A stretch of 64,000 nt of DNA from a bacterium (GTDB taxonomy: Bacteria; RBG-13-61-14; DATKZS01): contig CAXXFL010000003.1 in NCBI GenBank assembly GCA_963674965.2, positions 416,001 through 480,000 on the forward strand, given 5' to 3'. How positions within the stretch are numbered: position 1 is the stretch's first letter; every line of letters begins with the position of its first letter. Shown here piece after piece: positions 996 to 64,000 of this stretch. Position numbers and translations under genes: made by a program. The notes under the pieces are model-generated. The model worked only from the letters and a program-made list of their open reading frames with translations. It searched no databases and was not told where the DNA came from.

Positions 996-1034
996 CGCGG
1001 CGGCCGGCCGCGAAACGACAAGGGAGGGAGCGTT

Positions 1035-2303
1035 ATGTTCGAGCTTGGCGAGCCTCATCGGATGGTGGAGAAGATGGTCAGGTCCTTTTGCGAGAAGGAG
1101 GTCGCGCCCAAGGTGGCGGCCATGGAGGACGGCGAGGTCTTGGTCTTCGAAATAATGCGGAGCATGGCCAGGGCCTTCGGTCTTCCGTCCATGATCAAAA
1201 GCCTGGAGAAGGGCCTTGACGGCAAGAAGGATAAAGGCGGCGGCCCGGGGGAGGACGCGCCCTCCCAGGTGGGCATGATGGGCATGGAGGCCGACCCCCT
1301 CGTCAGCGTGGTAATCGGCAAGGAAATCGCCCGCGTTTGCCCGTCCCTGGCCATGGCCATCACCGGCAGCGTGGGCCTGACGGGGGCGACCATCATGGCC
1401 AAGGGCACGGTGGCCCAGAAGAAGAAATACGGCCTTCCCATCCTGGCCATGGAGAAGATAGGGGCCTGGGGCATGACCGAGCCCGACTCGGGGTCGGACG
1501 CCTTTGCCCTGCGGACCATCGCCAGGCCGGTGGAGGGGGGCTACGCGCTCAACGGCCAGAAGATATTCATCACCAACGCGCCCTACGCGGACATATTCGT
1601 CATCTACGCCAAGATCGACCGGGGCCAGGCGGACAAGCGGGACAAGCGGTTCGTGTTCCCCTTTATCGTGGAGAAGGGGACCAGGGGCCTGGACGTTTCC
1701 AAGTCGGCCAAGAAGATGGGCATGAGGGGCTCGCCCAACGGCGAGGTTTTCCTGGACGACGTGTTCGTGCCGGCGGACGGGCTGCTGGGGGAGACGGAGG
1801 AAAAATCGAGCCGGGACCAGGCCAAGGAGGTTTTCGCCAGCGAGCGCTCGGGCGCGGCGGTAATGTGCTGGGGCATCATCGAGCGGTGCCTGGAGGACTC
1901 GATCAAGTACGCCATCGAGCGCGAGCAGTGGGGCCGTCCCCTGGCGGATTTCCAGCTCATCCAGGAAAAGATAGCCCGCATGTACATCCACCTCGAGAAT
2001 ACCAGGAACATCGCCTTCAAGCAGGCCTGGGCCCAGCGGGAGGGGAAGGCGACGGTCGAGGACGGCTGCGTCTCGAAATACTATTGCGCCAACGCGGCGG
2101 TGGAGGTCGCCCTTGACGCCATCCAGCTCATGGGCGGCTACGGCTACATGCGGGAGTACCACGTGGAGATGCTCATGCGGGACGCCAAGCTCATGTCCAT
2201 CGCCGGCGGCACGGACGAAATCCAGCTCCTGACCATCGCCAAGGAACTGTTCAGGAAAAGCGGCTACGACCTCACCATCTCGGGGGTGAAAAGGGACGGC
2301 TGA
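1035..2303 (+). CDS. acyl-CoA dehydrogenase
   Basis: Motifs WGMTEPDSGSD, LNGQKIFITN, KMGMRGS, REQWGRPLADFQLIQ, QLMGGYGY and GGTDEIQ; GGAGGGAG SD. Confidence 0.95.
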   Translation: MFELGEPHRMVEKMVRSFCEKEVAPKVAAMEDGEVLVFEIMRSMARAFGLPSMIKSLEKGLDGKKDKGGGPGEDAPSQVGMMGMEADPLVSVVIGKEIARVCPSLAMAITGSVGLTGATIMAKGTVAQKKKYGLPILAMEKIGAWGMTEPDSGSDAFALRTIARPVEGGYALNGQKIFITNAPYADIFVIYAKIDRGQADKRDKRFVFPFIVEKGTRGLDVSKSAKKMGMRGSPNGEVFLDDVFVPADGLLGETEEKSSRDQAKEVFASERSGAAVMCWGIIERCLEDSIKYAIEREQWGRPLADFQLIQEKIARMYIHLENTRNIAFKQAWAQREGKATVEDGCVSKYYCANAAVEVALDAIQLMGGYGYMREYHVEMLMRDAKLMSIAGGTDEIQLLTIAKELFRKSGYDLTISGVKRDG

Positions 2304-2437
2304 AAACCTCCATCATCCTGGGGCCGGACGCTCTCTCTCCCCCGTCTTGTCTTCATGGCGCTGACAACCTCGCGCCTTGACTGCTATACTATGCCTTTGT
2401 AACCAATTCGCGTTATCCATATAAACGGGAGGTACCC

Positions 2438-4027
2438 ATGAAGAAAATCAAAACCGCCGCCGTCCTTTGGCTGTTAATCCTATCCGTCCATTTCGGACTT
2501 GGCTTTGGATGCCCCTCGCCCGAGAGGGAAGGAGCGAAAACCAAAGAGACGGAAAGCCAAAAGCGGGAGGCGCGCGAGCCGGCCCGGGCTTCGGTGCTTT
2601 TCTTTAACGACGTTCATGGGCACTTAAGTCCCTTCACCATCAGCCGGGACGGCGAGACGGTCGAGGTGGGCGGCATAGCCCGCATGGCGGCCGAGATCAA
2701 GCGGATAAGGGCGGAGAATAAAAGGCGGGGCGTTCCCACCTTCCTCCTGGTCGCGGGGGACGCCCTGCAGGGAACGCCCATGTCCACCGTGTTCCAGGGC
2801 AAGCCCGATTTCGAGTGCATGAACGCCATGAAGGTGGACGCCATGACCATCGGCAACCACGAGTTCGACTTCGGCCTGGATAATTTCCTTGGCCTGCAAA
2901 AGCTGGCCGCCTTTCCCTTTTTAAGCGCCAACGTGGTCTGGAAGGACACGGGGGAGCCCATCGCCTCCCGCTCGGTTTCCCTCGAGTTGGAAAAGGGACT
3001 TTACCTGACCGTGATCGGCGTGACCACCTCCCATCTCCTGGAGACCACCAAGCCCTCGAACGTGGAAAAGCTCGCGGTCATCGAGCCTATCGCGTCCATG
3101 CGCGAGGCATACGAGGAGGCGGTGAAAAAAGGGCCGGTCATACTCCTTTCCCACTCGAGGGCCAGGACCGACGAGGCCATCGCCCGGGCGTTCCCGGACC
3201 TGGCCGCCATCATCGGCGGACACGACCAGATACTGATCAATCCCTCGAAAAAGGTGGGCGAGGTCCCGGTCTTCCAGGCCTTCGAGAAGGGCAAGTACCT
3301 GGGACGGCTGGAACTGGAGATAGACCGGGACTCGGGCCGGGCGGCGGTCGCGAGTTACGAGTACGTTCCCATCACCTCCGCCATCGAGCCCGATCCTCAG
3401 ATCGAGGGGATCGTGGAGAGCTACCGGTCCCGCCTGGACGACGAGTTCAAGGAGGTCATAGGCGAGGCCCTCGTCTTCATGGACGGCGAGCGCGAGCGGA
3501 TACGCTACGAGGAGACCAACCTGGGCGACTTCGCGACGGACGTCATGCGCGAATACACCGGCGCCGACCTTGCCCTTTTAAACGCGGGCAGCCTTCGCTC
3601 GAGCCTGGCGGCGGGGCCGATCACCGTGGAGGACGTTTTCAAGACCATGCCTTACGCCAACGAGGTCGTGATCGCCGAGCTGACGGGAGACGAGATCATG
3701 ACGGCCCTGACCCGGGCGGTCATGGGAACGCGGGAGGATGAGGACGGCGGTTTCCTGCACGTCTCGGGGATCAGTTTCGTCATCGAGGGCAAGAAGCCGA
3801 CTGAGGTCAAGTTTGGCGCATACCTGAAGCCGCTCGAGGCGGAGAAAAAGTACGCGGTGGCCATTACCGACTTCATGGCCGACGGCGGCGATGGTTACAA
3901 GGTCTTCATGGGCAAGACCTCCTACAAGACGGGCTCGCCCCTGCGGGAGTTGCTGGTTGACCGGATCAAGGCCCAGGGCAAGATCGAGGCGAAGACCGAG
4001 GGAAGGATTACTAGGGCCGAGCCTTAA
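2438..4027 (+). CDS. 5'-nucleotidase / bifunctional metallophosphatase, exported (probable lipoprotein)
   Basis: NDVHG, AGD, GNHEFD and GGHD metallophosphoesterase motifs, then a 5'-NT C-terminal domain (ETNLGD, NAGSLR, GGDGY). Signal peptide ends in GFGC. Confidence 0.9.
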   Translation: MKKIKTAAVLWLLILSVHFGLGFGCPSPEREGAKTKETESQKREAREPARASVLFFNDVHGHLSPFTISRDGETVEVGGIARMAAEIKRIRAENKRRGVPTFLLVAGDALQGTPMSTVFQGKPDFECMNAMKVDAMTIGNHEFDFGLDNFLGLQKLAAFPFLSANVVWKDTGEPIASRSVSLELEKGLYLTVIGVTTSHLLETTKPSNVEKLAVIEPIASMREAYEEAVKKGPVILLSHSRARTDEAIARAFPDLAAIIGGHDQILINPSKKVGEVPVFQAFEKGKYLGRLELEIDRDSGRAAVASYEYVPITSAIEPDPQIEGIVESYRSRLDDEFKEVIGEALVFMDGERERIRYEETNLGDFATDVMREYTGADLALLNAGSLRSSLAAGPITVEDVFKTMPYANEVVIAELTGDEIMTALTRAVMGTREDEDGGFLHVSGISFVIEGKKPTEVKFGAYLKPLEAEKKYAVAITDFMADGGDGYKVFMGKTSYKTGSPLRELLVDRIKAQGKIEAKTEGRITRAEP

Positions 4028-4028
4028 G

Positions 4029-4037
4029 TGATATAAT
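4029..4037 (+). promoter_or_regulatory. putative extended -10 promoter element
   Basis: TGATATAAT (TGn-TATAAT) about 70 nt upstream of the CoA-transferase. Confidence 0.4.
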
Positions 4038-4105
4038 TTTCTTGAACGCCTGGAGGCATTCTCCCGACGAGCCGTATAAATTCAGGCGCCGAGAAAGGAA
4101 GTTAA

Positions 4106-5815
4106 ATGGAGTTGAGTATAATCGAGAAGGCGAAGGTCCTGGCCCACATGCTCAAGTGGCGTCTCACCTGGGAGCGCCGCGACCTCGAGTACGTTCATCC
4201 CGGCGTTGACAATCCGAAATTCATGAACGCCAGGGACGCGGTCCGGCTGATCGAGGACGGCGACGTGGTGCTTTCCTGCGGCATGGCGGCCAACGCCCGC
4301 TGCTCGATATTCTACTGGGGCCTTAAGGACTACTTTTTATCCGAGGGCCATCCGCTGGGGCTGACCTGGATAGGGGTTGGGGCCATGGGCAGCCGGGGCA
4401 AGGCGCCCGGCTCTCTGGAGGAACTTAATTTTCCCGGCCCTCTCGCTCGTTACATCGGGGGTCACCTGGAGACGATCAAGGCCCAGCTTAAGCTGGCGAG
4501 CGAGGGTCATCTCGAGCTTCAGACCATGCCTCAGGGGGTGATGGCTTTTCTCTTCGAGGCCCAGGCCAGGGGGGAGGACTCGATACTCACGGACGTTGGG
4601 GTTGGAACTTTCCTCGATCCCCGCCTGGGTCCCGGGACCCAGGTGGTGCCCGGCAAGGGCGAGAACCTGGTGATCGTGGAGGGGGACCTTCTTCGGTACC
4701 GGCTGCCCAAAATAAACGTCACCATGTTCGTGGCCCCCTACGCGGACCACGAGGGAAACATTTACTTCCATAACGCGGCGACCCACACGGAGAACGTTCC
4801 CGGCGCCCGGGCGGCCAGGGCCAACGGGGGCAAGGTCCTGGTCTCGGTCTGCGACGTTATTAAAAAGGACGAGTCCAGGATCAGCCTGGCGGCGGACATG
4901 GTGGACGCCGTGGTGGTCAATCCATACAGCGAACAGACGGGCTCGGTGCCCCAGCGAAAATACTGGCCCTTGTTCACGGTCGGGGCCAACGAGGACGTCG
5001 AGAAGGAGGTGGCCAGGTTAAAGTTCGCCAACGAGGCGCTGAAGATAACTCCCGTCCGCCGCGCTCCCGAGCTGGCCATGTCCCGCGTGGCGGCTCGAGT
5101 CTTCACCCGGCTGGCGCGGCCCGGGGCGGAGGTGAATATAGGCGTGGGCCTTCCCGAGGAGGTAAGCCGCGTGATCCGGGAGGGGGGCCTCACGGACGAC
5201 GTGAACTTCGCCACCGAGACCGGCGTGTGGGGAGGGCTGCCGACGCCGGGAGTGTTCTTCGGCGCGGCCGTCAATCCCAAAAAGATGATGAGCTCGGCCC
5301 AGATATTCGAGTTCTGGAAAGACAACCTGGACGTCACCATCCTGGGCCTTCTCGAGGCCGACTCCGAGGGGAACGTGAACGTGTCCCGCCGCGGGACCGA
5401 CCCGGTGGATTTCGTGGGACCCGGCGGTTTCCCCAACCTGGTCCGCTACGCCAAGTCGATCCTTTTCGTCGGCGCCTGGATGGCCGGCGGCAAAATCGAG
5501 CTGGCCGGCGGCAAGGTGAAAATAGTCTCTCCCGGCGAGTACAAGTTCAAGGAGAGGGTCTCGGAGATAACCTTCAGCGGCAAGGTCGCCCTCGCCCAGG
5601 GCAAGACGGTGTATTACGTCACCAACGTGGGGGTTTTCCATTTGACGGAAAGGGGCATGGAACTGATCGAGATCATGCCGGGCCTGGACCCGGAAAAGGA
5701 CGTCATCGAGCCCTGCCCCATGCGGATAGTCAGACCCGAGAGCGGCGAGATCGAGGTCATCGGCGAGAACGTGGTCACGGGAAAAGGTTTCGAGCTGAAT
5801 TGGTCCGGGGACTGA
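4106..5815 (+). CDS. family I CoA-transferase, fused alpha/beta (YdiF/propionate CoA-transferase-like)
   Basis: PQG, VGVGTFLDPR, NIGVGLPE, catalytic-type ETG, GNVNVS, GPGGF, ITFSG and YVT motifs. Confidence 0.9.
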   Translation: MELSIIEKAKVLAHMLKWRLTWERRDLEYVHPGVDNPKFMNARDAVRLIEDGDVVLSCGMAANARCSIFYWGLKDYFLSEGHPLGLTWIGVGAMGSRGKAPGSLEELNFPGPLARYIGGHLETIKAQLKLASEGHLELQTMPQGVMAFLFEAQARGEDSILTDVGVGTFLDPRLGPGTQVVPGKGENLVIVEGDLLRYRLPKINVTMFVAPYADHEGNIYFHNAATHTENVPGARAARANGGKVLVSVCDVIKKDESRISLAADMVDAVVVNPYSEQTGSVPQRKYWPLFTVGANEDVEKEVARLKFANEALKITPVRRAPELAMSRVAARVFTRLARPGAEVNIGVGLPEEVSRVIREGGLTDDVNFATETGVWGGLPTPGVFFGAAVNPKKMMSSAQIFEFWKDNLDVTILGLLEADSEGNVNVSRRGTDPVDFVGPGGFPNLVRYAKSILFVGAWMAGGKIELAGGKVKIVSPGEYKFKERVSEITFSGKVALAQGKTVYYVTNVGVFHLTERGMELIEIMPGLDPEKDVIEPCPMRIVRPESGEIEVIGENVVTGKGFELNWSGD

Positions 5816-5839
5816 GCCCGGGCCTTATCTCTCGTTTTT

Positions 5840-7327
5840 TCACTCGCGCAGCAGGGGCACGAACTCGCCCAGTTTCTTTCGGACCGGGAAGTACTTGGTC
5901 TCGAGGGCGGTAAGAGAGTTCAGGACCGACCTCATTCCCCAGTAAAGGCCGCGGAAAAACCAGCGGTTCTTGGGAAAGCGCCAGACGATCTTGGCGATGA
6001 TGGAGGGCCGGAGGAAAAAGGCGCGATAGGCGTCCCTTTGAATTTTAAACAGGTCCACGCCCGTGACGTGAGTGTAAAAGGTCGTCTCGGCCCAGTAGCG
6101 CAGGTTGAAGAAATCGTATCCCGAGAAGTCGAAGTCGGGGTATGCCTCCTTGGCCATCTCGAAGAGCCCGGTCCTCGGGTATACCACCACGGTGAAGAAC
6201 CAAGCCCTGGTCAGCCTCGAGTTTACGGCGTAGTCGATGGACGCCTGCATTTCCTCGCGGGTCTCGCCGGGAAATCCGAGCATGAAGAACCCCTGGGTGA
6301 TGATGCCCTCCGCGTCGGTCCAGGCGATGACCTCCCTTAGCTTTTCCAGGTCGTTGTTTTTCCGGATTCTTTTTTGCAGGCGAGGCGACGCGGTCTCGAC
6401 GGCGTAGGTAATCGAGTAGGCCCCCGCTTTCTTCAGTTTCCGTATCAACTCGCGGTCCATCCTGTCGCCCCGCAGGCCGTTGGGGAAGGCGATCTTGATC
6501 TTGATCCCGCGTTTTACTATCTCGTCGCAGATGGCCTTGGCCCGGGGGAGGTCCAGGTTGAAGATGTCGTCGACAATGTGGATTTCCTTGACGCCGTGCT
6601 CTTTCGTCAGGTACTCGAGCTCGGCCATCACGTTCCCGATGCTTCTTTTCCTTACCTTCTTGCCGAAGATACTGTGGCAGTAAACGCACTGGAAAGGACA
6701 GGCCCGGGTGGTAAAGAGCAGTGCCCAGGGCATGGAATGCACGAAGCCGTTCATGGATATCTGGAGGCCGTATTTCCTGAAGTCGATCATGTCCCACGCG
6801 AGCATGGGCAGGGAGTCCAGGTCCTCGATGGGCTCGCGCTCGCCGGTCCTAAAAACCTCGCCGTCCTTGATAATGGCCAGGCCCGCCACGTTATCGAGCG
6901 TTCTTCCCTCCAGCCAGGCGGCTACCATTTCCTCGAAGGTTTTTTCGCCCTCCCCGATGCAGGCCGCGTCCACGTTTCCCGTCTCGAGTTCCCAGTCGTA
7001 GAAGATCGAGGCGTGAGGACCCCCTATCCAGACGGGGACGTCAGGAAATGTTTTCTTCGAGACGGCGCAAAGCTCGCGGAGTTCGTTTCCCTCGACCGAC
7101 ATGCAGGACATGCAGACCAGGTCGGGTTTGAAGGCCCGGATTCTGTCGGCCACGTCGTCGGCCGAAAGGTCGTAAAGGGCCTGCTCGACCAGTTCCACCT
7201 CGAACTGGTCGGGGAATTTTTCCCTTAAAATCGATATCAGGCTGAGAAACCCCAGGGGCTGGGCGAAACCCATCCTGACGAACCTCTTGCCGGGCCGAAT
7301 CATTATGATTCGTTTTTTTTCACTCAT
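5840..7327 (-). CDS. cobalamin-binding radical SAM enzyme
   Basis: N-terminal B12-binding domain (PLG, GGPHAS, GEGE) plus CPFQCVYC, DDIF and FMLGFPGET. Confidence 0.9.
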   Translation of the reverse strand: MSEKKRIIMIRPGKRFVRMGFAQPLGFLSLISILREKFPDQFEVELVEQALYDLSADDVADRIRAFKPDLVCMSCMSVEGNELRELCAVSKKTFPDVPVWIGGPHASIFYDWELETGNVDAACIGEGEKTFEEMVAAWLEGRTLDNVAGLAIIKDGEVFRTGEREPIEDLDSLPMLAWDMIDFRKYGLQISMNGFVHSMPWALLFTTRACPFQCVYCHSIFGKKVRKRSIGNVMAELEYLTKEHGVKEIHIVDDIFNLDLPRAKAICDEIVKRGIKIKIAFPNGLRGDRMDRELIRKLKKAGAYSITYAVETASPRLQKRIRKNNDLEKLREVIAWTDAEGIITQGFFMLGFPGETREEMQASIDYAVNSRLTRAWFFTVVVYPRTGLFEMAKEAYPDFDFSGYDFFNLRYWAETTFYTHVTGVDLFKIQRDAYRAFFLRPSIIAKIVWRFPKNRWFFRGLYWGMRSVLNSLTALETKYFPVRKKLGEFVPLLRE

Positions 7328-7472
7328 TGGAAATCATACCTCGCGGGTCGGCCTTGCCGGGCGCCGAGCGTCTGGAAGCAATAAAGGAGGCCTCGTATTC
7401 CCGGAGTTGGATTATATCACCGCGGTTGGAACGGTCAAAATTTATGCCAAAGAAAGCGGATGAAAAAAGGGC

Positions 7473-8282
7473 TTATTCGTTCCGCGTCTCGCGGCGGGCC
7501 TTGGCCGCCCTTCTTCTGGCCAGGATAAGGTTGACCGCCTGGTCCTTGACCACGGGATGCAAAAGCATGTTGTCGGCCACGTCCTCCAGGTCCTGCTCGA
7601 GAAGGAAATGCAGAAGGGAAACGGATATCTCCGTGGGCGTATAAGGATTGTTGACCAGGGCTTTTTTCACCACGTAATGATTGGACCATTTCAGGTCCTT
7701 ATAGACGGTCCTCAGTATCTCGGCGCTGGTGGGACGCTTGGAGGCGATCTTGACGACCTCCTTTATCGTGACCGCGGGGTTTTTTAAAAGGTGCTCGATA
7801 ATGACCGGGTCCTGCTCGTGGCAGAGACGGTTGATAAGGTCGCGGTCCCGCATTCTTGCCTTTTGCCTTTTTCCGCCCAGGGTCATGTCCCTGAGCATGG
7901 GATCTTCCTCGAGCTGTTCGTCCTCACCCAGCCGCCTTGCCGGAGGAACCGCCCGCATGAACCTTACCACGTCGTCGTGGCCGCGGGAACGGGCCAGGCT
8001 GTAGACCTCGCTCATGAGACCGAAGCCCAGATGCTTGGATATATGCCTGACGTTGGAGATGGTCCTGAACCCGTCCTCGTAGCGGTCGACCTTGAGTTGG
8101 GCCCGGGCCGTTATAAGCCGGAAAACCTCGAGGATGGTCTCGGCGTCGAGTCGCTTCAGCTTCGAGCCCAGGGCGTAGGAACGCTGGCGCGGATCGACTA
8201 TGCCGGAAATCCTTTGCAGGAGTCGCTCGGTGATCTCGATTATCTCGGGCGAAAAGTCGTTTTCATCTTCCCCGGAAGACAT
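7473..8282 (-). CDS. conserved hypothetical helical-repeat protein
   Basis: Repeated LLKNP/LVNNPYTP motifs typical of LRV/HEAT-like repeats; co-oriented with flanking genes. Confidence 0.75.
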   Translation of the reverse strand: MSSGEDENDFSPEIIEITERLLQRISGIVDPRQRSYALGSKLKRLDAETILEVFRLITARAQLKVDRYEDGFRTISNVRHISKHLGFGLMSEVYSLARSRGHDDVVRFMRAVPPARRLGEDEQLEEDPMLRDMTLGGKRQKARMRDRDLINRLCHEQDPVIIEHLLKNPAVTIKEVVKIASKRPTSAEILRTVYKDLKWSNHYVVKKALVNNPYTPTEISVSLLHFLLEQDLEDVADNMLLHPVVKDQAVNLILARRRAAKARRETRNE

Positions 8283-8312
8283 GGCGCGAGAGTTTAGGGA
8301 AACGGCGCGGGG

Positions 8313-9830
8313 CTATTCCCCGACGTTGTTGGCCCCGACCACCGAGGGAGCCGTAAACTTCAGCTTGCCCGCCGGATAATCGAAAAACACGACGGTGAAG
8401 GCCCGGGACTCGCGCGGGCCAACCTCGATGCATCCCATGTTGCGCCCGCCCGAGGTGTCCATGGCCCCCAGGATAAAGTCCTTGCTCATGGTCTGAAGAT
8501 CGTCCAGGGCAAAGGAAACGTCGCAATAACTACGGCCCGTCACCACCCGCTGCTCGGTCTCGTCCTTCAGCGTGACCTCCACCAGGATGTTGCTCTTGAC
8601 CTTGTTGGTCCCGTTGGTCACCTGGCCCGTCACAACCACGATGACCGATCCGTCCTCCCTCGTGACCGTGTCGACCTTGTAGCCCTTCTCGACCATAATC
8701 TCGCCGGTCTCGGGCTCGGGTATCCAGCCCTTTTCGATCATGAACTTTTGCACGGCGGGCATTTGTTTGATCTTCTCGATATTAAGACCCGCCGCCACGC
8801 CGGCCGCGACAAGAAGCGCGAGAAAGACCAGCCCCACGTATTTTCCCGCGGAACTCTTCTGGGCGGGCCGGGATATGACCGGCTTCGGGGGAGGCGGAGG
8901 CGCGGCGGAACTTTCTTCAATCTCCGTCCTGCCGCGAGAAGACTCTCCGTCAAAATCGGCGTCTCCTATGCTGGCCTCGAGGTCGTCACCCGCGGGCTTT
9001 TTCGAACTGGGCGACCTGATGAAGTCGTCCACGTCCATGGGCATGTCGAGGTCGTCGCCGCCCCGGTCGGGAAGACTGTCGTCGGCGTCGAATTGGAAGT
9101 CTCCAAAGCCCCCGTCGTCGTCTCCGTCCCCGGCTCCGGCTCCAGCTCCAAACCCCTCGTCTTCGCCGAAGCTGACGTTTCCCCACTCCTCGTCGGAGGG
9201 CGGGGAAGCGGCGGGCTTGGGCTCGGGAGCGGGGGGCGGCGCGCCGGGAGGGGCCGCTTCCTTGCCCGAGTCGGCGAAGCTGTCGTCGTCGAACTTGAAG
9301 TCGCCGAAGTCGTCGTCGGCCCCGGCCTTGGGAGAAGCCGCCTTGGGAGAAGCCGCCTTGGGCGGAGCGGGCTTGGGCGGAGCGGGCTTGGGAGGAGGGG
9401 CCGGGGCCTCTTCCTCGCCGTCGGAAAGGGAGAAGTCCTCGTCGGCGAAATCGAAATCGTCGCCGCCCGAGACGGGGGCCGCCGGCGAGTCCTCGAGAAA
9501 GCCGGGGTCCATTCCCGGAGCGGGAGGAGGAGGGCTGGGAGCGGAGGGAGCGGGAGCGGATTCGTCCGGGGAAATTTCCCCGTCGCTTTCCTCGCCGAAA
9601 TCCATGTCATCGGAAAAATTGAAGTCGGAGAACGGGTCGTCTCCCGCCGGTCCCGAGCCGCCGGCCGCGGGAGGCGGGGCCGGCGCGGCGGAGGCCGCCT
9701 CCTGGCCGTCGCCCTTTTTGACCGTAAACACGCTCTTACACTTGGAACAGCGGACCTTGACGCCCTTGGGCCCGACCTTTTCGTCGGCAAGCTGGAACTT
9801 GGCTCCACATTTATCACAGTTAACAATCAT
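8313..9830 (-). CDS. zinc-ribbon (MJ0042-type) membrane protein with acidic/Pro-rich linker and DUF3426-like C-terminus
   Basis: CDKC...KVRCSKC zinc finger, long D/F/P-rich linker, one TM helix, and a periplasmic beta domain (VVTGQVTN). Confidence 0.85.
   Translation of the reverse strand: MIVNCDKCGAKFQLADEKVGPKGVKVRCSKCKSVFTVKKGDGQEAASAAPAPPPAAGGSGPAGDDPFSDFNFSDDMDFGEESDGEISPDESAPAPSAPSPPPPAPGMDPGFLEDSPAAPVSGGDDFDFADEDFSLSDGEEEAPAPPPKPAPPKPAPPKAASPKAASPKAGADDDFGDFKFDDDSFADSGKEAAPPGAPPPAPEPKPAASPPSDEEWGNVSFGEDEGFGAGAGAGDGDDDGGFGDFQFDADDSLPDRGGDDLDMPMDVDDFIRSPSSKKPAGDDLEASIGDADFDGESSRGRTEIEESSAAPPPPPKPVISRPAQKSSAGKYVGLVFLALLVAAGVAAGLNIEKIKQMPAVQKFMIEKGWIPEPETGEIMVEKGYKVDTVTREDGSVIVVVTGQVTNGTNKVKSNILVEVTLKDETEQRVVTGRSYCDVSFALDDLQTMSKDFILGAMDTSGGRNMGCIEVGPRESRAFTVVFFDYPAGKLKFTAPSVVGANNVGE
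9325..9399. repeat. 5 x 15-bp imperfect tandem repeat encoding PPKPA/SPKAA
   Basis: Units gccttgggagaagcc (x2), gccttgggcggagcg, ggcttgggcggagcg and ggcttgggaggaggg. Confidence 0.85.
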
Positions 9831-12490: not shown

Positions 12491-12495
12491 CCGCT

Positions 12496-13374: not shown

Positions 13375-15084
13375 CTAGGTGGACGCGTCTATGAATTCGC
13401 GGGCCAGGGCCGCCGCCTTCTCGAGGTCGGCCAGGCGTGGCTTTTCCTCGGTCCGTCCCTTGATCTCGACTTTTCCCTGCTTTAAGTTCTTCGACCCTAT
13501 CACGATCCGGAGGGGAATCCCCAGGAGGTCCGCGTCCTTGAATTTCACGCCCGCCCTCTCGTCCCGGTCGTCCATGAGCACCTCGAGTCCCTTTTCCTCG
13601 AGTTCTTTTTCGAGCTTGTCGGCCGCGGCCATTGAATCCTCGTCGTTCACGTTGATGGGCATGAGGTAGACGTGGAAGGGCGCTATCTGGGGTTTCCAGA
13701 CGATGCCGTTCTCGTCGTTGTTCTGCTCGATGGCCGCCGCCGCGGTCCGGCCGGTTCCGATGCCGTAGCATCCCATGACCAGTGGTTTTTCCTTGCCTTC
13801 CTTGTCCAGGAAGAGGGCCCCCATGGCCTCGGAGTACTGGGTCCCCAGTTTGAAGATGTGGCCCACCTCGATGCCCTTGGTCACGCGCATCGCGGTGGCG
13901 CACCTCGGACACGGGTCGCCCTCCCCCACCAGTCTCAGGTCCGCCACCTGCTTGACCTGGAAGTCAACCCCAGGCGTGGCGTTTATATAATGATGGTCTC
14001 CCTCGTTGGCGCCCACCACCAGGTTCCTCGCCCCGTCCAACTCGGAGTCAAGATAGACGGGAAGGTTGATGCCCACGGGACCGGAAAAACCCATGGGTCC
14101 TCCCGTGTACTGCTCGATGCGCATGGGCTCGGCCAGATGGGCCCAAGCCACGTCGAGGCAGGCCGTGAGTTTTTCCTCGTTAAGTTCCCGGTCGCCCCGG
14201 ACCATGGCCGCCTTGGGGCCGTTGGGAGTGTCGAAGATTAAGGTCTTGGCCACCCTCTTGGGCGAAATTTTAAGGAAACTCGATACCTGCTCGACCGTGT
14301 GGGTCCCCGGCGTGTGGACCTTCTCGAGGGCCTTGTCATCCTCGTCGCCCCCGACGGGGTCCTCGGGCCGGGACTCGGCCAGCTCGACGTTGGCCGCGTA
14401 GCCGCACTTGTCGCAAACGGCTATGGTGTCCTCCCCCGTGTCGGCGATGACCATGAACTCGTGGCTGAAGGCCCCGCCGATCTGGCCGGTCTGGGCCTCG
14501 ACGGGCTGGAAGTTAAGTCCGCAGCGCTTGAAAATCCTTTTATAGGCCTCGTACATGTCATGGTAAGTGCGCTCGGCCGAGGGGTCGTCGGCGTCGAAGC
14601 TGTAGGCGTCCTTCATCTCGAACTCGCGGGCCCTCATGACCCCGAAGCGGGGCCTTATCTCGTCGCGGAATTTCATCTGTATCTGGTAAAGGCAAAGGGG
14701 AAGGTCGCGGTAGCTTTTAATCTCGCCCTTTACCAGGTCCGTTATGACCTCCTCGTGGGTGGGGCCCAGGCAGAATTCCCTGTCGCGGCGGTCCTTGAGG
14801 CGAAGCAGCTCGGGCCCGTACTTTTCCCACCTGCCCGACTCCTCCCAGAGCTCGGCCGGCTGGACCATGGGAAGGTGGACCTCCTGGGCCCCCGCGGCGT
14901 TCATCTCCTCCCGCACGATCCTTTCCACTTTCCGCAGGACCCGAAGCCCCAAGGGCAGCCAGGTGTATATGCCCGAGGCAACCTTGCGGATCATGCCGGC
15001 GCGGAGCATCAGCTTGTGACTTATTACCTCGGCCTCGGCCGGGACCTCCCGCAAAGTGGGAAGATATATCCTGGAAATACGCAT
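13375..15084 (-). CDS. proS: proline--tRNA ligase (bacterial type with editing domain)
   Basis: LGPTHEE, KFRDEIRPRFG, REFEMKDAYSF, IEVGHIFKLG, MGCYGIG and anticodon domain DDRDERAGVKF. Confidence 0.98.
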   Translation of the reverse strand: MRISRIYLPTLREVPAEAEVISHKLMLRAGMIRKVASGIYTWLPLGLRVLRKVERIVREEMNAAGAQEVHLPMVQPAELWEESGRWEKYGPELLRLKDRRDREFCLGPTHEEVITDLVKGEIKSYRDLPLCLYQIQMKFRDEIRPRFGVMRAREFEMKDAYSFDADDPSAERTYHDMYEAYKRIFKRCGLNFQPVEAQTGQIGGAFSHEFMVIADTGEDTIAVCDKCGYAANVELAESRPEDPVGGDEDDKALEKVHTPGTHTVEQVSSFLKISPKRVAKTLIFDTPNGPKAAMVRGDRELNEEKLTACLDVAWAHLAEPMRIEQYTGGPMGFSGPVGINLPVYLDSELDGARNLVVGANEGDHHYINATPGVDFQVKQVADLRLVGEGDPCPRCATAMRVTKGIEVGHIFKLGTQYSEAMGALFLDKEGKEKPLVMGCYGIGTGRTAAAAIEQNNDENGIVWKPQIAPFHVYLMPINVNDEDSMAAADKLEKELEEKGLEVLMDDRDERAGVKFKDADLLGIPLRIVIGSKNLKQGKVEIKGRTEEKPRLADLEKAAALAREFIDAST

Positions 15085-16062: not shown

Positions 16063-16081
16063 CCTCGCTTTAAAAAACGGC

Positions 16082-16112
16082 AAAGCCCCGGAAACTCCTC
16101 CGGGGCTTTTTT
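16082..16112. terminator. intrinsic terminator, possibly bidirectional
   Basis: AAAGCCCCGGA-loop-TCCGGGGCTTTTTT between convergent genes. Confidence 0.85.
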
Positions 16113-16136
16113 ATGTCGGATTATCGGCTTGCCGGT

Positions 16137-16373
16137 TTATTTTATTTCCCGGCCTTTGCGCCCGTCTCCGGAATAAAGAGTGATCCGGATGCCGCTTTTT
16201 AGCTTTTTATTCCGGCTCGGGCAAGAAGGGCAAGGATTGTTAACGAGAAACTCCCGCGCCTCCTTCAGGCGGCTGGGCGGAAGAGGGGCCGAACCGCGAG
16301 CGTCTTTGTCCTCGAGGTCGCATCCGCCGATTACGAACCTGGCCACCGTCTTGCCGTCCTTTTCCTCGATCAT
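16137..16373 (-). CDS. small hypothetical protein (78 aa) with CPSC motif
   Basis: AGGAG SD 7 nt before ATG 16373; ends just before the terminator hairpin. Confidence 0.5.
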   Translation of the reverse strand: MIEEKDGKTVARFVIGGCDLEDKDARGSAPLPPSRLKEAREFLVNNPCPSCPSRNKKLKSGIRITLYSGDGRKGREIK

Positions 16374-16807
16374 GCCTCGTCTCCTCGAGCCGGACCCGAC
16401 GCCGGGCCCCGCCGATTGTGGCGCCAATTTCGAGAATCTCTTTGCACCCGCGCAAAAACAATAGCGCCCAAAAATAAGATACCCGTTAGATAAGGGCGAT
16501 CATTTCGCGAAAATGTATCTCCCCATCTTTTCTTCCTGGAAAATTACTCCGCATTATCCGTGCCTTATCAAACCTTCGCCCTTGTGCCCAAAATATTTGG
16601 GTCCTTTGGCCCCGGCTTTCGGGCCATCTTTTCCATTCCTTCGCGTTTCTTCGGTTCAATTTCCGGGCCAACCTTGCAGGGAGGCGGCGGTCCTTAAAAA
16701 CGCCGCGCCTTCTCCCCCTCGTTTTGCGCCGGGGGAGGATGCCGGTAAAATATGCTCACGGGGGCCCCATGGCCCCTTTCATTCGGGGCTAAAGGGAGGA
16801 CACGAAC

Positions 16808-17806: not shown

Positions 17807-17981
17807 CTGAGCCATGACCGGGCCAATCGCTCAACTAATTTATCTTTCTTTTCTCGACGCGAGCGCAAAATTAGTAAATATCTATTATTTCTTTTAAATG
17901 GAATATGATTATACCATGGATAATATTGAATGGCCCCCGCTTTATAAGCGGATAAATTGAGTCAATTAACAAAAAATTATC

Positions 17982-18011
17982 TTGACAAGAATTTTGATTT
18001 GTTCTATTAAT
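17982..18011 (+). promoter_or_regulatory. putative sigma70 promoter for the secreted repeat protein
   Basis: TTGACA, 17-nt spacer, then TATTAAT, in an AT-rich intergenic region. Confidence 0.6.
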
Positions 18012-18436
18012 AGCCGCAACAGGGAGATAATTGTGGGGGTCAACCTGAAAAGGACCGAGTAGTTTCGGTGGAAGGAAAAAGATTATCTATATTTTTCCGT
18101 AATCGCATTATTACCGACCTTTTTTCAATTCATTAATATTTTTAGCTTACGGTTAAGCAGCCGCTTTTATTAGCGGCGCCGCTTGCCCTGATGGGACTTT
18201 CCCTATTCGTGGCTTGGCTGGAATTGTATCCAGCCAAGCGCTTACCCCCCTTTTGTCATTCAATATTTACCAAACAAACCGATCGATTTTTTATTGAGAG
18301 ATATTACGCGCTTTGTTCAATTCAATAAAGCGCCGTTAAGGAGGTGGCAAGCGTCAGGTATCAAGGTATCCATTAGAAAAAGGTAAAGGCGTCACGTAGT
18401 ACAACTTTCACTTATCCCGTATTAAAGGAGGAAAAA

Positions 18437-21497: not shown

Positions 21498-21598
21498 ATA
21501 GCCGACGTTATAAATAGCTTATTTAACAAGACGGAAAAAAGGACGGGGTCTCGAGGTCCCCGCCGTTTATAGCGACTAATAAATCGGGAGAGCAGGCA

Positions 21599-22165: not shown

Positions 22166-22226
22166 GGAAAGGCCGCCGCCGGCCGGGCGCGCCGCTCCTC
22201 CCGCCGGACGCCTCGAGAAATTCGCC

Positions 22227-24194
22227 ATGATAAAGCTTGTAGACGTTAACATCACTTATGGGGACCGCCCCGTGCTCGGCGGCGTAAGCTGGACCCTCGC
22301 TCCCACCGACCGGGTGGCCCTGGTGGGGGAGAACGGCTCGGGCAAGAGCACCCTCTTGAAAATACTGGCCGGCGTCCAGGAATACGACCGGGGCGCCCGT
22401 GAGATATCCAAGAACCTCCAGGTGGGCTACCTTCCTCAAGAGGGCGTGACCCACGCGGGCCGGACCCTCGAGAAGGAGGCCCGGCTGGCCCTCGAGCCCA
22501 TCCTTGATCTCGAGCGGGAGTCCAGGTCCATCCAGGCCAGGCTGGACGACCCTTCCCTCGGGGACGACCAAAGGCTGGACCTTATCCAGCGCATGAGCGA
22601 CCTGATGGACGAGTTCGGACTGCGCGGAGGCTACGAGGTCGACGCCGAGGTCTCGAGGGTGCTGGCGGGACTGGGCTTCGCCGAGGAGGAAAAGGACCGG
22701 CCGGTCGAGACCTTTTCCGGCGGCTGGCAGATGCGGATCGCCCTGGCCAAGATACTCCTTTCCAAGCCCGACGTGCTTTTGCTCGACGAGCCCACCAACC
22801 ACCTGGACCTCGAGGCCAGGAACTGGCTCGAGGAGTTCCTCCGCCAGCGGGACCACTCGTACCTGATCGTGTCCCACGACCGCTTCTTCATCGACCAGAC
22901 GGTGGACAAGATAGTCGAGGTGGACCAGGGACGACTGATCGATTACCGGGGCAACTACTCCCACTTCCAGGAGGAAAAGGAAAAACGTATCCAACTCGCC
23001 CAGGCCGCCTATGACAAGCAACAGCTCGAGATAAAAAGACTCAATACCTTCATCGCCAAAAACAAATGCGATAAAAAGAGAGCGGGCCAGGTGCACGCCC
23101 GCATGAAGATGCTCGAGCGGATCGATCCCCTCGATCCGCCCCGGCGAACGTCCACCGTGCGCTTTCGCTTTCCCCCCTCCCCGAGGGGGCCGGAGGAGGT
23201 CTTGAGGGCGGAGGGCCTGGCTAAGGGCTACGGCGACAAGGAGGTCCTCAAAGGGGTGGACCTCGCCCTCTTCCGCGGCGAGAAAGCGGCGGTGGTGGGC
23301 GTGAACGGGGCGGGCAAATCGACCCTGCTCGACTCGCTGGCGGGGGCCAAGAAGATCGACTCCGGCGAGATCAAGATCGGCGAGGGCGTGCAAATGGCCT
23401 ACTTCGGGCAGGGCGCGGGCGAGGACCTGCCGGGTGGGGACACGGTCCTCGAGGCCATCGAGCGGGGGGCGCCGGTGGACGTTTTTCCCCGGCTCCGTAA
23501 CCTTCTCGGCGCTTTCCTTTTCAGCGGGGAGGACGTGGACAAAAAGGTGTCCGTTTTATCGGGCGGCGAGAAGAGCCGGCTGGCCCTGGCCCGCCTGCTC
23601 TTAAAGCCGACCAATTTGATCCTGCTCGACGAGCCGACCAACCACCTTGACCTGCGGGCCAAGGAGGTCCTGATGGACGCCTTTCGGAACTACGAGGGCA
23701 CGCTCCTTTTCGTGGCTCACGACCGCTATTTCCTCGAGGACCTGCCGGACCGTATAATCGAGGTGAACGACGGCCGCCTCAGGAGTTACCCGGGCGACTA
23801 CACGGACTACCTTCTGGCCAAGGAGAGGGAGGAAGCCGCGATGATCGAGGCGCAAAAGGTCGGCAAAAAGGGCGGCAAGAAAAAGGCCGCTCCCCCCCCT
23901 CCCGCTCCCTCCCGCGAAAAAAAAGACAAGGAGACTGACAAGCGCGAGCGCATGAAAAGGCGGGATGAGGAGAAGAAGAGGCTCCGCGAGGAGCGGAAGC
24001 TGCAAAAGAGGATGGACGATCTCGAGCGCGAGATAACCGAGACGGAGACCGCCATCGAGGAGATCGAGGCGCGCATGGCCTCGCCCAAAGTGGCGAGCGA
24101 TTACGTCGAGCTTCTGGACCTGGAGAAGGAAAAGAAGCGGCTGACGAAAAAGGTCGAGACTCTTATAAAGGAATGGGAGGGACTCGGCCGATAA
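22227..24194 (+). CDS. ABC-F family ATPase
   Basis: Two ABC domains (GENGSGKST/FSGGW/LLLDEPTNHLD and GVNGAGKST/LSGGE), no TM segments, coiled-coil C-terminus. Confidence 0.95.
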   Translation: MIKLVDVNITYGDRPVLGGVSWTLAPTDRVALVGENGSGKSTLLKILAGVQEYDRGAREISKNLQVGYLPQEGVTHAGRTLEKEARLALEPILDLERESRSIQARLDDPSLGDDQRLDLIQRMSDLMDEFGLRGGYEVDAEVSRVLAGLGFAEEEKDRPVETFSGGWQMRIALAKILLSKPDVLLLDEPTNHLDLEARNWLEEFLRQRDHSYLIVSHDRFFIDQTVDKIVEVDQGRLIDYRGNYSHFQEEKEKRIQLAQAAYDKQQLEIKRLNTFIAKNKCDKKRAGQVHARMKMLERIDPLDPPRRTSTVRFRFPPSPRGPEEVLRAEGLAKGYGDKEVLKGVDLALFRGEKAAVVGVNGAGKSTLLDSLAGAKKIDSGEIKIGEGVQMAYFGQGAGEDLPGGDTVLEAIERGAPVDVFPRLRNLLGAFLFSGEDVDKKVSVLSGGEKSRLALARLLLKPTNLILLDEPTNHLDLRAKEVLMDAFRNYEGTLLFVAHDRYFLEDLPDRIIEVNDGRLRSYPGDYTDYLLAKEREEAAMIEAQKVGKKGGKKKAAPPPPAPSREKKDKETDKRERMKRRDEEKKRLREERKLQKRMDDLEREITETETAIEEIEARMASPKVASDYVELLDLEKEKKRLTKKVETLIKEWEGLGR

Positions 24195-26363: not shown

Positions 26364-26464
26364 GGAATATGAGGCGAGATAAAAAGTGAAGCCGGGCCAG
26401 CGTCGTCCGGCTTCGGGCGCTTATGGGGAAACGAAAACCATCAGCGACCCATGGAGGCGGCGAA

Positions 26465-55300: not shown

Positions 55301-55303
55301 GCC

Positions 55304-57093: not shown

Positions 57094-57400
57094 GAGCGTT
57101 CTTCATCGTAGTGCCCCGGCCTGGTAAAATCAATCTTGCAAGCAAGGAAAAACCGGATATTTGACGCCCTTGGCGCCGAATAAAGCCAAGAAATTTCCCC
57201 GGGTTTGATTTTACCCTCCTTCTTTGATAGCGTTATTTGGCGCGTTTTTCGCCGTGTATGGCCCCTTTGGGGGATTAAGGACCTTTTTTATTGGCGAAAA
57301 AAGGCGCGAGTCCTCGGCCATTTGCCCCGCCGTTTTGCCCAAGCGGCCGGTAAAGCCCGACAAGGACTGAAACATTCAAACGATCGGGAGAAATTTCTAC

Positions 57401-59056: not shown

Positions 59057-59117
59057 TCGAAGCAAGTTAAAGGCGGCCGACGCGTCGCGAGCAAGGGCCG
59101 CGAATGGAGGGATGTAA

Positions 59118-60107: not shown

Positions 60108-60123
60108 AATTTTTCGGCTTTTT

Positions 60124-60154
60124 AAAAGGGCCCCTTTGCCGGGGCCTTTTTTTT
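60124..60154. terminator. bidirectional intrinsic terminator
   Basis: AAAAGGGCCCC-loop-GGGGCCTTTTTTTT between convergent genes. Confidence 0.8.
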
Positions 60155-60202
60155 GGCGTCTTGATTATTTTTCGGCCAAGGATGGCTCTCGAAAAGGCCA
60201 GG

Positions 60203-61777: not shown

Positions 61778-61843
61778 GGGCCGATTATAGCAGACGATGC
61801 CCCTTATTGACAGGGGCGGGCATGGACGCGATTTGGATGGAAA

Positions 61844-62578
61844 TCAGCGCAACCAGACGGGCTCGCTCACGAGTTTTTCGTTGATAAAGGCGGCTATCCG
61901 TTCCTGCACCGACGGGTCGATATGGATGAATTTCACTCCCATGCCGGGGAGGGATGATTTTTTACAGTAGGTTTCGTACTCGTTGTTCCACACCACCAGG
62001 CCGGTGGCCTTCACGGGCAGGTCGAGTTCCGGTATCTTGAACTGGATTTCGACGATTTCCTCGCTGGGGGCGGGGTCTATGGTGCGGATGAAAGTGCCGC
62101 CGGCCGAGAAATTGGAGGTATAGTTGGCGTATTGTTCGCCGTTGATTTTATAGGTGACCGGCAGGGACTTGAGCAGGCGGGGGTGGTTCCTCGAGTTGCT
62201 CTGACCCATGTGGAACACCTGGTTGACGCGAAACAGCACCTCGTCCACCAGGGCCGTCTTGGTGATGTAGCCGGTCGCTCCCAGTTCCTTCAAGCGGTCG
62301 ATTTCCTTGTCGCTCTTGAAAATGCCCGTAACCACAAGGACCCTTTGGTCCAGTTGGTTTTCCTGAATGTTTTCCAAAACCTCGAAACCGGTCATACGGG
62401 GCATTAAAAGATCGAGGATGACCAGGTCGATCCCGTCGCTCTCTTCGTCCAGTATGTGCCAGGCTTCCTCGCCGTCGCAGGCGGTCAAAACCTGGTATCC
62501 GGCCTCGGTCAAGACGTCCTGGAGCATTACCCTCATGGGCAGGGTATCGTCGGCGACCAGTATTTTTTTCGTTCCTAT
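61844..62578 (-). CDS. response regulator with C-terminal PilZ domain; non-canonical start probable
   Basis: REC domain (KKILVADD, LDLLMP, ITK) plus PilZ (RNHPR, NFSAGG, GMGVKF). The frame is open upstream of ATG 62536 to an AAGGAG SD, but that stretch has no ATG, GTG or TTG. Confidence 0.85.
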   Translation of the reverse strand: MGTKKILVADDTLPMRVMLQDVLTEAGYQVLTACDGEEAWHILDEESDGIDLVILDLLMPRMTGFEVLENIQENQLDQRVLVVTGIFKSDKEIDRLKELGATGYITKTALVDEVLFRVNQVFHMGQSNSRNHPRLLKSLPVTYKINGEQYANYTSNFSAGGTFIRTIDPAPSEEIVEIQFKIPELDLPVKATGLVVWNNEYETYCKKSSLPGMGVKFIHIDPSVQERIAAFINEKLVSEPVWLR

Positions 62579-62941
62579 AATCGCAATACTCCTTGATTAA
62601 TTTAAATTAATCTAATAATAAAATCAAGGATTATTTTACGCCGGCTCGATCGAGATGGCCCTTACGTTTCAAATCTCTAATTTAAAAAGAAAAAATTCCA
62701 AGAATAAGAAAAAGGTGCAGTAATTTGAAAAAATGATGCCATATGCTTCGATGATATTAACACCAAAGACGTACTATTGCAAGAACAATTTTCCCGTTCG
62801 GTAACAATTTCCTTTATTACTAAATATTATCTTTTTTTTCAGAAGTTAACTCCGTTGTTAATTGACTTTTTTTGACTATAAATCCGGGGCGGTTAAAAAC
62901 CTCGCTTGCCCGGAGGGAGAAGGGGGAGTAAACTCTCCTTT

Positions 62942-63940
62942 GTGAAAGCGAAACCCAAAATAGGCATTACTTCCACCGTGCCCATCGAGATTATTCTGGC
63001 GGCCGGACTCGAGCCGGTGGACCTGAATAACGTCTTTATCGGCTCCGACTCCCCCCTGGCCATGGTCGCCCTGGCCGAGGACCGCGGATTTCCCGGCAAC
63101 TCCTGCGCCTGGATCAAGGGCATGTACGGAGCGGCCAATGTCCATGGCGTGAAAAGGGTCCTGGGCGTGACCCGGGGCGACTGCACCAACTCGGAAAAAC
63201 TCCTGGAAATATGGAGACATGATGGACTTAAGACGGACCGCTTCGCCTTTCCCGACGAGCCGGACGAGGCCGCCCTCGCCTCCGAGCTCGAGAGACTGGC
63301 CCGAGCGCTGGGTCCCAGCCTCGCCGAGGCCGAAAAAAAACGGCTCGAGCTTTTGCCCCTCCGGCGGTCCCTCGAGGAACTCGACCGCATGACCTGGCAG
63401 GACGGCCTGGTATCGGGCGCGGAAAACCACCTGTGGCTGGTCGGCTCGAGCGACTTCGGCGGAAATCCCGAGCGCTTTCACCGGCGGCTGATCGAGTTCA
63501 TGGAAGAGGCCAAAACTCGGACTCCCCGGCGCCCGGCGCCCAGGCTGGGCTACCTGGGCGTTCCTCCCATCGCGCCCGACCTGTACGAATTTATCGAGGG
63601 ACTCGGGGCCGGAGTGGTTTTTAACGAGGTCCAGCGCCAGTTTTCCATGCCCGGCGACCGGGGAGGGCTGGCCGCGCAATACGCCGCCTATACCTACCCC
63701 TACGACACCGCGGGCCGGGTCCGGGATATAAAGCGCGAGATCGAGAAGAGGAACTTGGCCGGCCTCGTCCATTACGCCCAGACCTTCTGCCCCCGCCGGC
63801 TGGAGTCGATCCTGCTGGAGGAGATCCTGCCCGCGCCGGTCATTACCATCGAGGCCGACAAGCCCGGCCCCCTCGAGGCCCGTACCAAGACCCGTCTTGA
63901 GGCCTTTATCGAGGGCCTAAAAGCCCGCCATCGTTCATGA
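62942..63940 (+). CDS. 2-hydroxyacyl-CoA dehydratase (HgdA/B, BcrB/C-like) subunit
   Basis: IGITSTVPIE, PVDLNNVFI, CAWIKG, GDCTN, HYAQTFC and TRLEAFIE motifs; start uncertain. Confidence 0.85.
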   Translation: MKAKPKIGITSTVPIEIILAAGLEPVDLNNVFIGSDSPLAMVALAEDRGFPGNSCAWIKGMYGAANVHGVKRVLGVTRGDCTNSEKLLEIWRHDGLKTDRFAFPDEPDEAALASELERLARALGPSLAEAEKKRLELLPLRRSLEELDRMTWQDGLVSGAENHLWLVGSSDFGGNPERFHRRLIEFMEEAKTRTPRRPAPRLGYLGVPPIAPDLYEFIEGLGAGVVFNEVQRQFSMPGDRGGLAAQYAAYTYPYDTAGRVRDIKREIEKRNLAGLVHYAQTFCPRRLESILLEEILPAPVITIEADKPGPLEARTKTRLEAFIEGLKARHRS

Positions 63941-64000
63941 TTCATTATTTATACATATTGTTTCACAAGGATTGACGGGCCCAGTTCTTGCGATTATCGA

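Follow-up and report, generated by a model that had tools for sequence, protein, structure and literature searches.

CTCGAG in a 64-kb stretch of bacterial DNA looks like the peak of a neighbour-dependent sequence bias rather than a HIP1-type element

We analysed a stretch of 64,000 bases (positions 416,001 to 480,000 of contig CAXXFL010000003.1; below, the window) in which the palindrome CTCGAG outnumbers every other hexamer. It occurs 152 times, about once every 421 bases (2.38 per kb). An initial annotation of the same DNA had seen CTCGAG recur throughout the window and had likened it to HIP1, the highly iterated palindrome (HIP) of cyanobacteria. The recurrence is real: none of 100 dinucleotide-preserving shuffles attained it. 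We consider it reasonably likely that CTCGAG marks the summit of a genome-wide bias, specific to the lineage, by which the choice of base at freely variable positions depends on the neighbouring bases; this bias would be multiplied by a codon usage and a proteome for which CTC-GAG is already an inexpensive way to encode Leu-Glu. This bias probably acts at the DNA level and is amplified by codon usage, and CTCGAG does not look like a discrete HIP1-type element, or looks at most weakly like one.

Site number, reading frame and codon context

Base composition alone predicts 20.9 sites, or one per 3069 bases, in keeping with the one per 3 kb estimated in the initial annotation. The dinucleotide-preserving shuffles gave a mean of 28.69 (standard deviation 5.81, largest 47), against which the excess is 5.3-fold. 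For codon-aware expectations we used a set of 50 genes called by a self-trained codon model (90.4% of the window), most of them checked with Pfam and NCBIfam. These genes hold 148 of the sites. Codon-order shuffles predicted 41.5 ± 5.7 sites inside genes, and synonymous shuffles, in which codons are permuted within each gene while the protein sequence and the per-gene codon counts are kept, predicted 55.0 ± 6.4, with a largest value of 74 (n = 300). The observed-to-expected ratio (O/E) against the synonymous shuffles is 2.69 (z = 14.6). Codon usage and Leu-Glu frequency are therefore insufficient to explain the count, and the excess survives the control for both that had been proposed as a check. 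The same comparison picks out CTCGAG as the top hexamer, TCGAG as the top pentamer and CGAG as the top tetramer.

The count builds up in four layers. Base and dinucleotide composition supply about 21–29 sites, codon usage raises this to about 42, and the real order of amino acids, with 184 Leu-Glu dipeptides in the called genes, to about 55. The fourth and largest layer is neighbour-dependent synonymous choice, which brings the number inside genes to 148; CTC-GAG is used in 119 (65%) of the Leu-Glu dipeptides where 45.1 (24.5%) would be expected. This last layer probably stems from a context-dependent mutation or repair bias of the lineage (a ‘genome signature’); in our reading it was not left by a system to which CTCGAG is one recognition unit. 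To the idea that GC content, codon usage and Leu-Glu frequency by themselves explain the count we give next to no credence. These factors do lift the expectation from 21–29 to 55, and the number of sites per gene follows that of Leu-Glu dipeptides (r = 0.85), but 148 observed sites against a shuffle maximum of 74 refute a pure composition artefact.

The initial annotation had placed copies in the Leu-Glu frame, in other frames and between genes, and all three are represented: 119 of the 152 sites (78%) read CTC|GAG, 26 read xxC TCG AGx, 3 read xCT CGA Gxx and 4 lie outside genes. Against the synonymous shuffles, frame 0 (CTC|GAG) holds 119 sites where 46.9 are expected (O/E 2.54), xxC TCG AGx 26 where 6.9 are expected (O/E 3.74), and xCT CGA Gxx 3 where 0.4 are expected (O/E 8.2). 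The out-of-frame total is thus 29 against 7.3, and the enrichment extends to all three frames. An analytic dicodon expectation puts the last two frames at 21.6 and 1.0, respectively.

Synonymous choice depended on the neighbouring codon. Serine was written TCG in 67% of cases before AGN, compared with 31% before other codons starting with A, and C-ending codons made up 66% of the codons preceding TCG compared with 38% of those preceding TCC. Leucine was written CTC in 73–74% of cases before GAG and GAT, against 25–32% before GAC or GAA. C-ending codons were favoured before GAG, relative to their use before codons not starting with G, in 14 of 15 amino acids, the exception being Thr (0.57 vs 0.69). 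Glutamate in turn was written GAG in 92% of cases after C-ending codons and in 62–63% after codons ending in A, G or T. The enriched pentamers recur across other codon positions, as TCG|AG and C|TCG A.

Codon context was unusually strong overall across the called genes. T-ending codons were avoided before G-starting codons (Tyr was TAC in 97% of cases before G-starting codons other than those in GA, compared with 70% before codons not starting with G). For Leu, CTT predominated where the next codon began with T (44%), and CTG where it was GCN, GGN or GTN (56–68%). Among 1234 Arg codons, AGG accounted for 334 and CGA for only 56.

Translational codon-pair selection would produce part of this pattern: a ribosome or tRNA pool that favours CTC-GAG, and NNC before GAG generally, would leave the palindrome as an incidental result. 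The 78% of sites that lie in frame agree with such selection, as do the C-ending codons before GAG, the high use of GAG after C-ending codons, and an asymmetry of the coding strand in frame 0, where xxC|GAG has an O/E of 1.46 but CTC|Gxx only 1.04. Even so, we hold it to be quite improbable. Out-of-frame sites are enriched at least as strongly as in-frame ones, and the same pentamers are enriched across different codon positions. Nor does the O/E rise with the G+C content of third codon positions (GC3), being 2.75, 3.02 and 2.25 from the lowest to the highest tercile, although GC3 is only a crude stand-in for codon bias and ribosomal-protein genes are absent from the window; genes on the plus and minus strands are likewise similar (2.64 and 2.78). 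The preference for CTC before GAG and GAT, but not before GAC and GAA, tracks DNA words rather than amino acids. A flat O/E across GC3 classes and strands, together with the out-of-frame sites, argues against translational selection.

Alternatively, the excess could be a by-product of avoiding competitor words, either Shine-Dalgarno-like GGAG in genes, which would disfavour CTG-GAG, or restriction sites. GGAG is indeed mildly depleted in all frames (0.77–0.85), and several palindromes are extremely strongly avoided in this genome. However, neither GGAGG (0.98) nor AGGAGG (1.03) is depleted, and AGAG (0.57) and TGAG (0.60) are both lower than GGAG (0.79), so we rejected Shine-Dalgarno avoidance as the driver. 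In frame 0 the O/E is 0.66 for CTGGAG and 0.14 for CTTGAG, yet in frame 2 it is 2.05 and 2.15, respectively. Rival words are thus depleted only where they compete with CTC-GAG, which indicates a positive preference rather than an avoidance of rivals. TCGAG (1.93) also stands far above ACGAG, CCGAG and GCGAG (1.13–1.26). We therefore regard competitor avoidance as very unlikely to underlie the excess.

The avoided palindromes are an observation in their own right. RGATCY is nearly absent from the window, with one GGATCC, one AGATCT and two AGATCC/GGATCT, or 4 in all where dinucleotides predict about 99 (hand sum). CTAG (7 found, about 135 expected) and CAGCTG (1 found, about 10 expected) are nearly missing as well; CGATCG is mildly depleted (0.49) and TGATCA is not depleted (1.14). 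The deficit of RGATCY, CTAG and CAGCTG departs from expectation far more than the CTCGAG excess does and looks like a strong footprint of restriction avoidance. The specificity could, for example, be of the BstYI/XhoII type.

Short words within the palindrome

Under Markov models of order 1 to 4, the O/E of CTCGAG is 5.41, 3.68, 1.25 and 0.94. The excess that the initial annotation expected to outlast correction for codon usage, Leu-Glu frequency and TCGA tetramer bias therefore holds up against the first two (2.7), but comes down to near 1 once the TCGA tetramer is modelled (orders 3 and 4). It is first visible in tetramers (CTCG/CGAG 1.42, TCGA 1.45), and the pentamers stand at 1.15.

The two flanks of TCGA contributed separately. 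Against the synonymous shuffles, C-TCGA-G has an O/E of 2.73, D-TCGA-G 1.60, C-TCGA-H 1.14 and D-TCGA-H 0.78 (D, not C; H, not G; sums made by hand). The interaction ratio of 1.17 (z about 0.9) is not significant, so the flanks act approximately independently. CTCGA occurs 295 times, TCGAG 340 times and TCGA 625 times, which makes the hexamer 45–52% of its pentamers and 24% of TCGA, and words one letter away reach 40–60% of its count (ATCGAG 91, CCCGAG 66). There was no longer motif: CCTCGAGG is at expectation (56 vs 55.6), and the flanks of the CTCGAG sites carry at most 0.12 bit of information per position, with nothing conserved beyond codon periodicity. A repeat family around the sites was rejected, the best pair of 26-base contexts matching at 20 of 26 positions.

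Because the preferences for C before TCGA and for G after it are independent and appear in every frame, on both strands and in all GC3 classes, we read the fourth layer as acting at the DNA level. Both preferences are probably present in noncoding DNA as well. CTCGAG is also not alone in its strength: five of the other hexamers that are expected at least 10 times lie at or above its O/E, for example AGGAAA (3.23) and CCTTTT (3.07). The case shows how to separate a true iterated element from a compositional peak, for a palindrome may top the hexamers and beat codon-aware nulls 2.7-fold in every frame, yet split into independent short-word preferences.

A distinct group of words, AGGAAA/TTTCCT, CCTTTT/AAAAGG, GGAAAA and GGTTTT, in which runs of A/T lie beside runs of G/C, was enriched about threefold against the synonymous shuffles in several frames. 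Several of these words come as reverse-complement pairs. They suggest that synonymous sites are subject to a general neighbour-dependent bias in favour of homopolymer steps.

Distribution in the window, in other lineages and in proteins

The window has about 60% G+C, is about 90% coding and has a GC3 of about 0.8. Its genes are ordinary ones for an anaerobe, with prolyl-tRNA synthetase (ProRS), an ABC-F ATPase, DAHP synthase, radical-SAM enzymes, class III cytochrome c, and HdrD-like and FAD oxidases. The features that bear on CTCGAG are as follows.

1–64000, no strand: whole-window CTCGAG bias; 152 sites, O/E per third 2.69–2.74, exponential spacing.
13375–15084, minus strand: ProRS gene, the orthologue control; 5 Leu-Glu dipeptides, written as 4 CTCGAG and 1 CTCGAA.
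16311–16389, no strand: two noncoding CTCGAG sites (16311 and 16384) in a 745-base gap upstream of the DAHP synthase gene, without a convincing open reading frame (ORF).
21550–21555, no strand: noncoding CTCGAG directly downstream of a ketopantoate reductase gene, between short G+C-rich inverted arms.
22212–22217, no strand: noncoding CTCGAG 10 bases upstream of the ABC-F start codon.
22227–24194, plus strand: ABC-F ATPase gene; 11 sites, 10 of them in frame, and 11 Leu-Glu dipeptides.
26423–28258, plus strand: DUF6178 gene (PF19676, E = 5.7e-123); 12 sites, 8 of them in-frame CTC-GAG, and 11 Leu-Glu dipeptides.

Over the 64 kb that these uniformity results cover, CTCGAG ranked first or second among hexamers in every third of the window, at nearly the same O/E. 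The distances between sites have a coefficient of variation of 0.97, and their histogram fits an exponential, as for random spacing. The dense stretches singled out in the initial annotation are present as described, with 10 copies in 27059–28177 and 6 in 22467–22832. They fall in the DUF6178 and ABC-F genes, the two richest in Leu-Glu dipeptides; the DUF6178 protein is 13% Leu and 10.5% Glu. Given the exponential spacing and the Leu-Glu content of the dense stretches, periodicity or clustering was rejected. Heterogeneity between genes was marginal (chi-squared 62.6, 46 degrees of freedom, P about 0.05 by our own estimate). Its strength and uniformity would allow the bias to be used as a signature in the binning of contigs from this poorly sampled lineage.

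The four sites outside genes include those that the initial annotation had placed between genes at 21550 and 22212. At 0.65 per kb they are sparser than the sites in coding DNA (2.56 per kb). In the 6173 noncoding bases, where 1.1 sites (order 1, P = 0.026) or 1.5 sites (order 2, P = 0.066) would be expected, the 4 observed come from little DNA. We found no tRNA genes and no Rfam families in the window, which rejects RNA genes as an account of the noncoding sites.

Two features of this noncoding DNA stood out. The DAHP synthase gene is flanked by two unusually long gaps, 16063–16807 (745 bases) and 17807–18436 (630 bases), and in neither did we find a convincing ORF, an Rfam family or a tRNA. 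At 21530–21575, arms CGGGG ... CCCCG flank the CTCGAG at 21550 in a terminator-like arrangement, as judged by eye on the unfolded sequence.

For a comparison between lineages, we took 80 loci around proS genes of other bacteria. In 79 of them CTCGAG occurs at 0–0.81 per kb, compared with 2.38 per kb in the window. The remaining locus (L056), at 3.16 per kb, is a contig of a Holophagae metagenome-assembled genome (MAG; positions 1–9795, 67.7% G+C), with 31 CTCGAG in 9.8 kb. CTCGAG is its top hexamer, with a codon-aware O/E of 1.97, and CTC-GAG is used in 28 of its 41 Leu-Glu dipeptides; it is a second, unrelated genome with a CTCGAG excess. Across 25 other-lineage loci (G+C at least 0.5, length at least 9 kb), the codon-aware O/E ranged from 0 to 1.97, with a pooled value of 154/138.1 = 1.12, or 124/122.9 = 1.01 without the Holophagae contig (hand sums). 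A pooled O/E of about 1.0 elsewhere means that CTC-GAG is not a generally preferred pair, a further point against translational selection. When the same null was applied to 42 other loci of at least 18 kb, their top hexamer outliers had O/E values of 2–6 and Poisson z of 3.3–6.7. The CTCGAG excess is ordinary in magnitude, and less so in identity.

No close relative for a comparison of site conservation was found, ProRS matches reaching at most 59% identity and those of other proteins at best 60–80%. The best ProRS match among GTDB species representatives (59%) is among ‘Deltaproteobacteria’ MAGs, and for ABC-F the best of 5.8 billion proteins matches at 60% identity. The nearest homologues of the FGGY/xylulokinase-like protein and of the nucleotide-sugar dehydrogenase are 71% and 80% identical, respectively. 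The lineage of the organism seems to have been sampled only sparsely.

Several observations weigh against reading CTCGAG as the peak of a context bias at the DNA level. On the coding strand, the correlation between words and their reverse complements is modest, declining from r = 0.43 in trimers to 0.12 in hexamers; together with the strand asymmetry in frame 0, this indicates that the fourth layer is not wholly a symmetric DNA-level effect. Independent flanks would, strictly speaking, also be compatible with a symmetric dimeric reader whose half-sites contribute additively. A ratio near 1 under the Markov model of maximal order is expected even for a true unit that supplies many of its sub-words, and CTCGAG supplies 45–52% of its own pentamers. 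No other hexamer that is expected at least 30 times stands out as strongly as CTCGAG. CTCGAG is also the only palindromic hexamer with a large positive deviation (GTCGAC 0.44, TTCGAA 0.34, most below 1), and in only 1 of the 42 other loci do the top three words include a palindrome; a palindromic summit is not predicted by a generic context bias. Finally, Leu-Glu itself is over-represented, with a dipeptide O/E of 1.30 in the window and 1.69 in the Holophagae contig, compared with 0.99 in 63 pooled loci, and ProRS has 5 Leu-Glu in each of the two, compared with 2.1 ± 1.3 in 80 orthologues. This enrichment hints at a pressure strong enough to affect protein sequence.

Glu-Leu, as an internal contrast, has an O/E of 0.90 in the window and 0.99 in the Holophagae contig, and Leu-Glu ranks third of 291 dipeptides by enrichment relative to the pooled loci. 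At least 5 Leu-Glu occur in 4 of the 80 ProRS orthologues, the Holophagae one included, and at the positions of Leu-Glu in the window’s ProRS, 0–11 of the 80 orthologues have Leu-Glu in the same place. The ABC-F protein has 11 against a mean of 8.8 ± 3.2 in its homologues, which are themselves rich in Leu-Glu, and comes from a gene picked for its density and so biased upward; the FGGY kinase has 2 against 1.5 ± 1.1, and the nucleotide-sugar dehydrogenase 4 against 3.2 ± 1.4. Summed by hand, the four families hold 22 Leu-Glu where 15.6 would be expected (z about 1.65), all of them lying above the orthologue mean and ProRS alone clearly so. The orthologue-controlled excess is suggestive rather than established; such a hint matters because it would mean that a neighbour-dependent pressure on DNA may reach protein sequence.

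One replacement in ProRS was distinctive. At residues 491–492 the window has Leu-Glu (CTCGAA), where 64 of the 80 orthologues have [L/I/V/F]-Tyr. The Tyr is conserved otherwise, and its replacement is non-conservative and specific to the lineage.

A site-specific process and comparison with known systems

A site-specific system would offer a different account. CTCGAG could be a weak HIP-type site, it or its half-extended forms being made or kept by, for example, an orphan CTCGAG or TCGA methyltransferase acting with mismatch repair, or by a protein that binds the palindrome; in that case, one site per 420 bases would be the density at which the process aims. We regard this as possible but doubtful. 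The excess in all three frames, and possibly in noncoding DNA, is consistent with it, as are the lineage specificity, with a second independent case in the Holophagae MAG, and the Leu-Glu enrichment shared by the two genomes, down to the five Leu-Glu in each ProRS. Against it stand the small share of the hexamer in its pentamers and in TCGA, flanks without significant cooperativity, random spacing, and a noncoding density that is a quarter of the coding one. The orthologue-controlled Leu-Glu excess is marginal too, with ABC-F, the FGGY kinase and the sugar dehydrogenase all within one standard deviation. The initial annotation had suggested a look for methyltransferase and Vsr genes, and no methyltransferase, Vsr or restriction domain turned up when 54 ORFs of the window were scanned with Pfam and 18 with NCBIfam.

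Stated in full, such an account would make CTCGAG a weak hexameric analogue of the HIPs that arose independently here, in a deep-branching deltaproteobacteria-like lineage, and in Holophagae. It would be kept at about one per 400 bases by an orphan methyltransferase with repair or by a palindrome-binding protein, pulling proteins toward Leu-Glu. In this form we think it unlikely. If it is true that the genome has a matching methyltransferase, it would provide a small, tractable model for the birth of HIP-type words.

In Escherichia coli, very-short-patch (VSP) repair by the Dcm/Vsr system raises CCWGG and lowers its T-containing variants. The idea shared with such a system is that a repair bias tied to a methylated palindrome can raise both the site and its sub-words. 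Unlike in Dcm/Vsr, however, CTCAAG is at 1.29 overall and CTTGAG is low only in frame 0, and the scanned ORFs of the window hold no Vsr or m5C methyltransferase domain. A footprint of the VSP type was rejected, as the words that deamination would produce are not depleted irrespective of frame.

An orphan methyltransferase with this recognition word is on record: PMC4752239 describes one for CTCGAG in Nocardia, where the sites cluster at the replication origin, in noncoding DNA between dnaA and a polymerase gene. It shows that CTCGAG methylation without restriction exists, a point for a site-specific process. Unlike in Nocardia, the excess in the window is diffuse, mostly coding and unclustered beyond Leu-Glu-rich genes.

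HIP1 (GCGATCGC) and the alternate cyanobacterial HIPs offer the closest formal parallel. Like them, CTCGAG is palindromic, short and rich in G+C, outnumbers all other words of its length, is enriched in all three frames and varies between lineages. HIP1, however, is over-represented 15–300-fold and is enriched and conserved in noncoding DNA too, according to PMC5861425, whereas the CTCGAG excess is only 5.4-fold or 2.7-fold. According to PMC4390886, the HIP1 7-mers are nearly as frequent as the 8-mer and the alternate HIPs are accompanied by a cognate methyltransferase. CTCGAG, by contrast, makes up about half of its pentamers, has independent flanks and random rather than quasi-periodic spacing, and comes with no methyltransferase seen within the window. 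Of the HIP1-like character proposed in the initial annotation, enrichment in all three frames and lineage specificity therefore stand, while magnitude, dominance of sub-words, spacing and the missing VSP footprint speak against it.

With codon-pair bias, CTCGAG shares the fact that most of its sites are one codon pair, used 2.5-fold above the prediction from codon usage; it differs in that these words are in excess outside the reading frame too, and in that the excess is independent of GC3 class. In the literature searched, we found no paper describing a comparable CTCGAG excess.

The bias that we favour as the explanation most resembles genome-signature patterns: it is uniform within the stretch, varies between lineages and is visible already at the level of tetramers. 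It fits a survey of 200 genomes (PMC3077040, Table 1), in which the variance between genomes is higher for TCGA than for any other of the 16 four-letter palindromes. Short palindromes are mostly under-represented, both in that survey and in the window, whereas CTCGAG is strongly over-represented. Unlike the usual palindrome signatures, it sits on an already common codon pair, and hence becomes the top hexamer.

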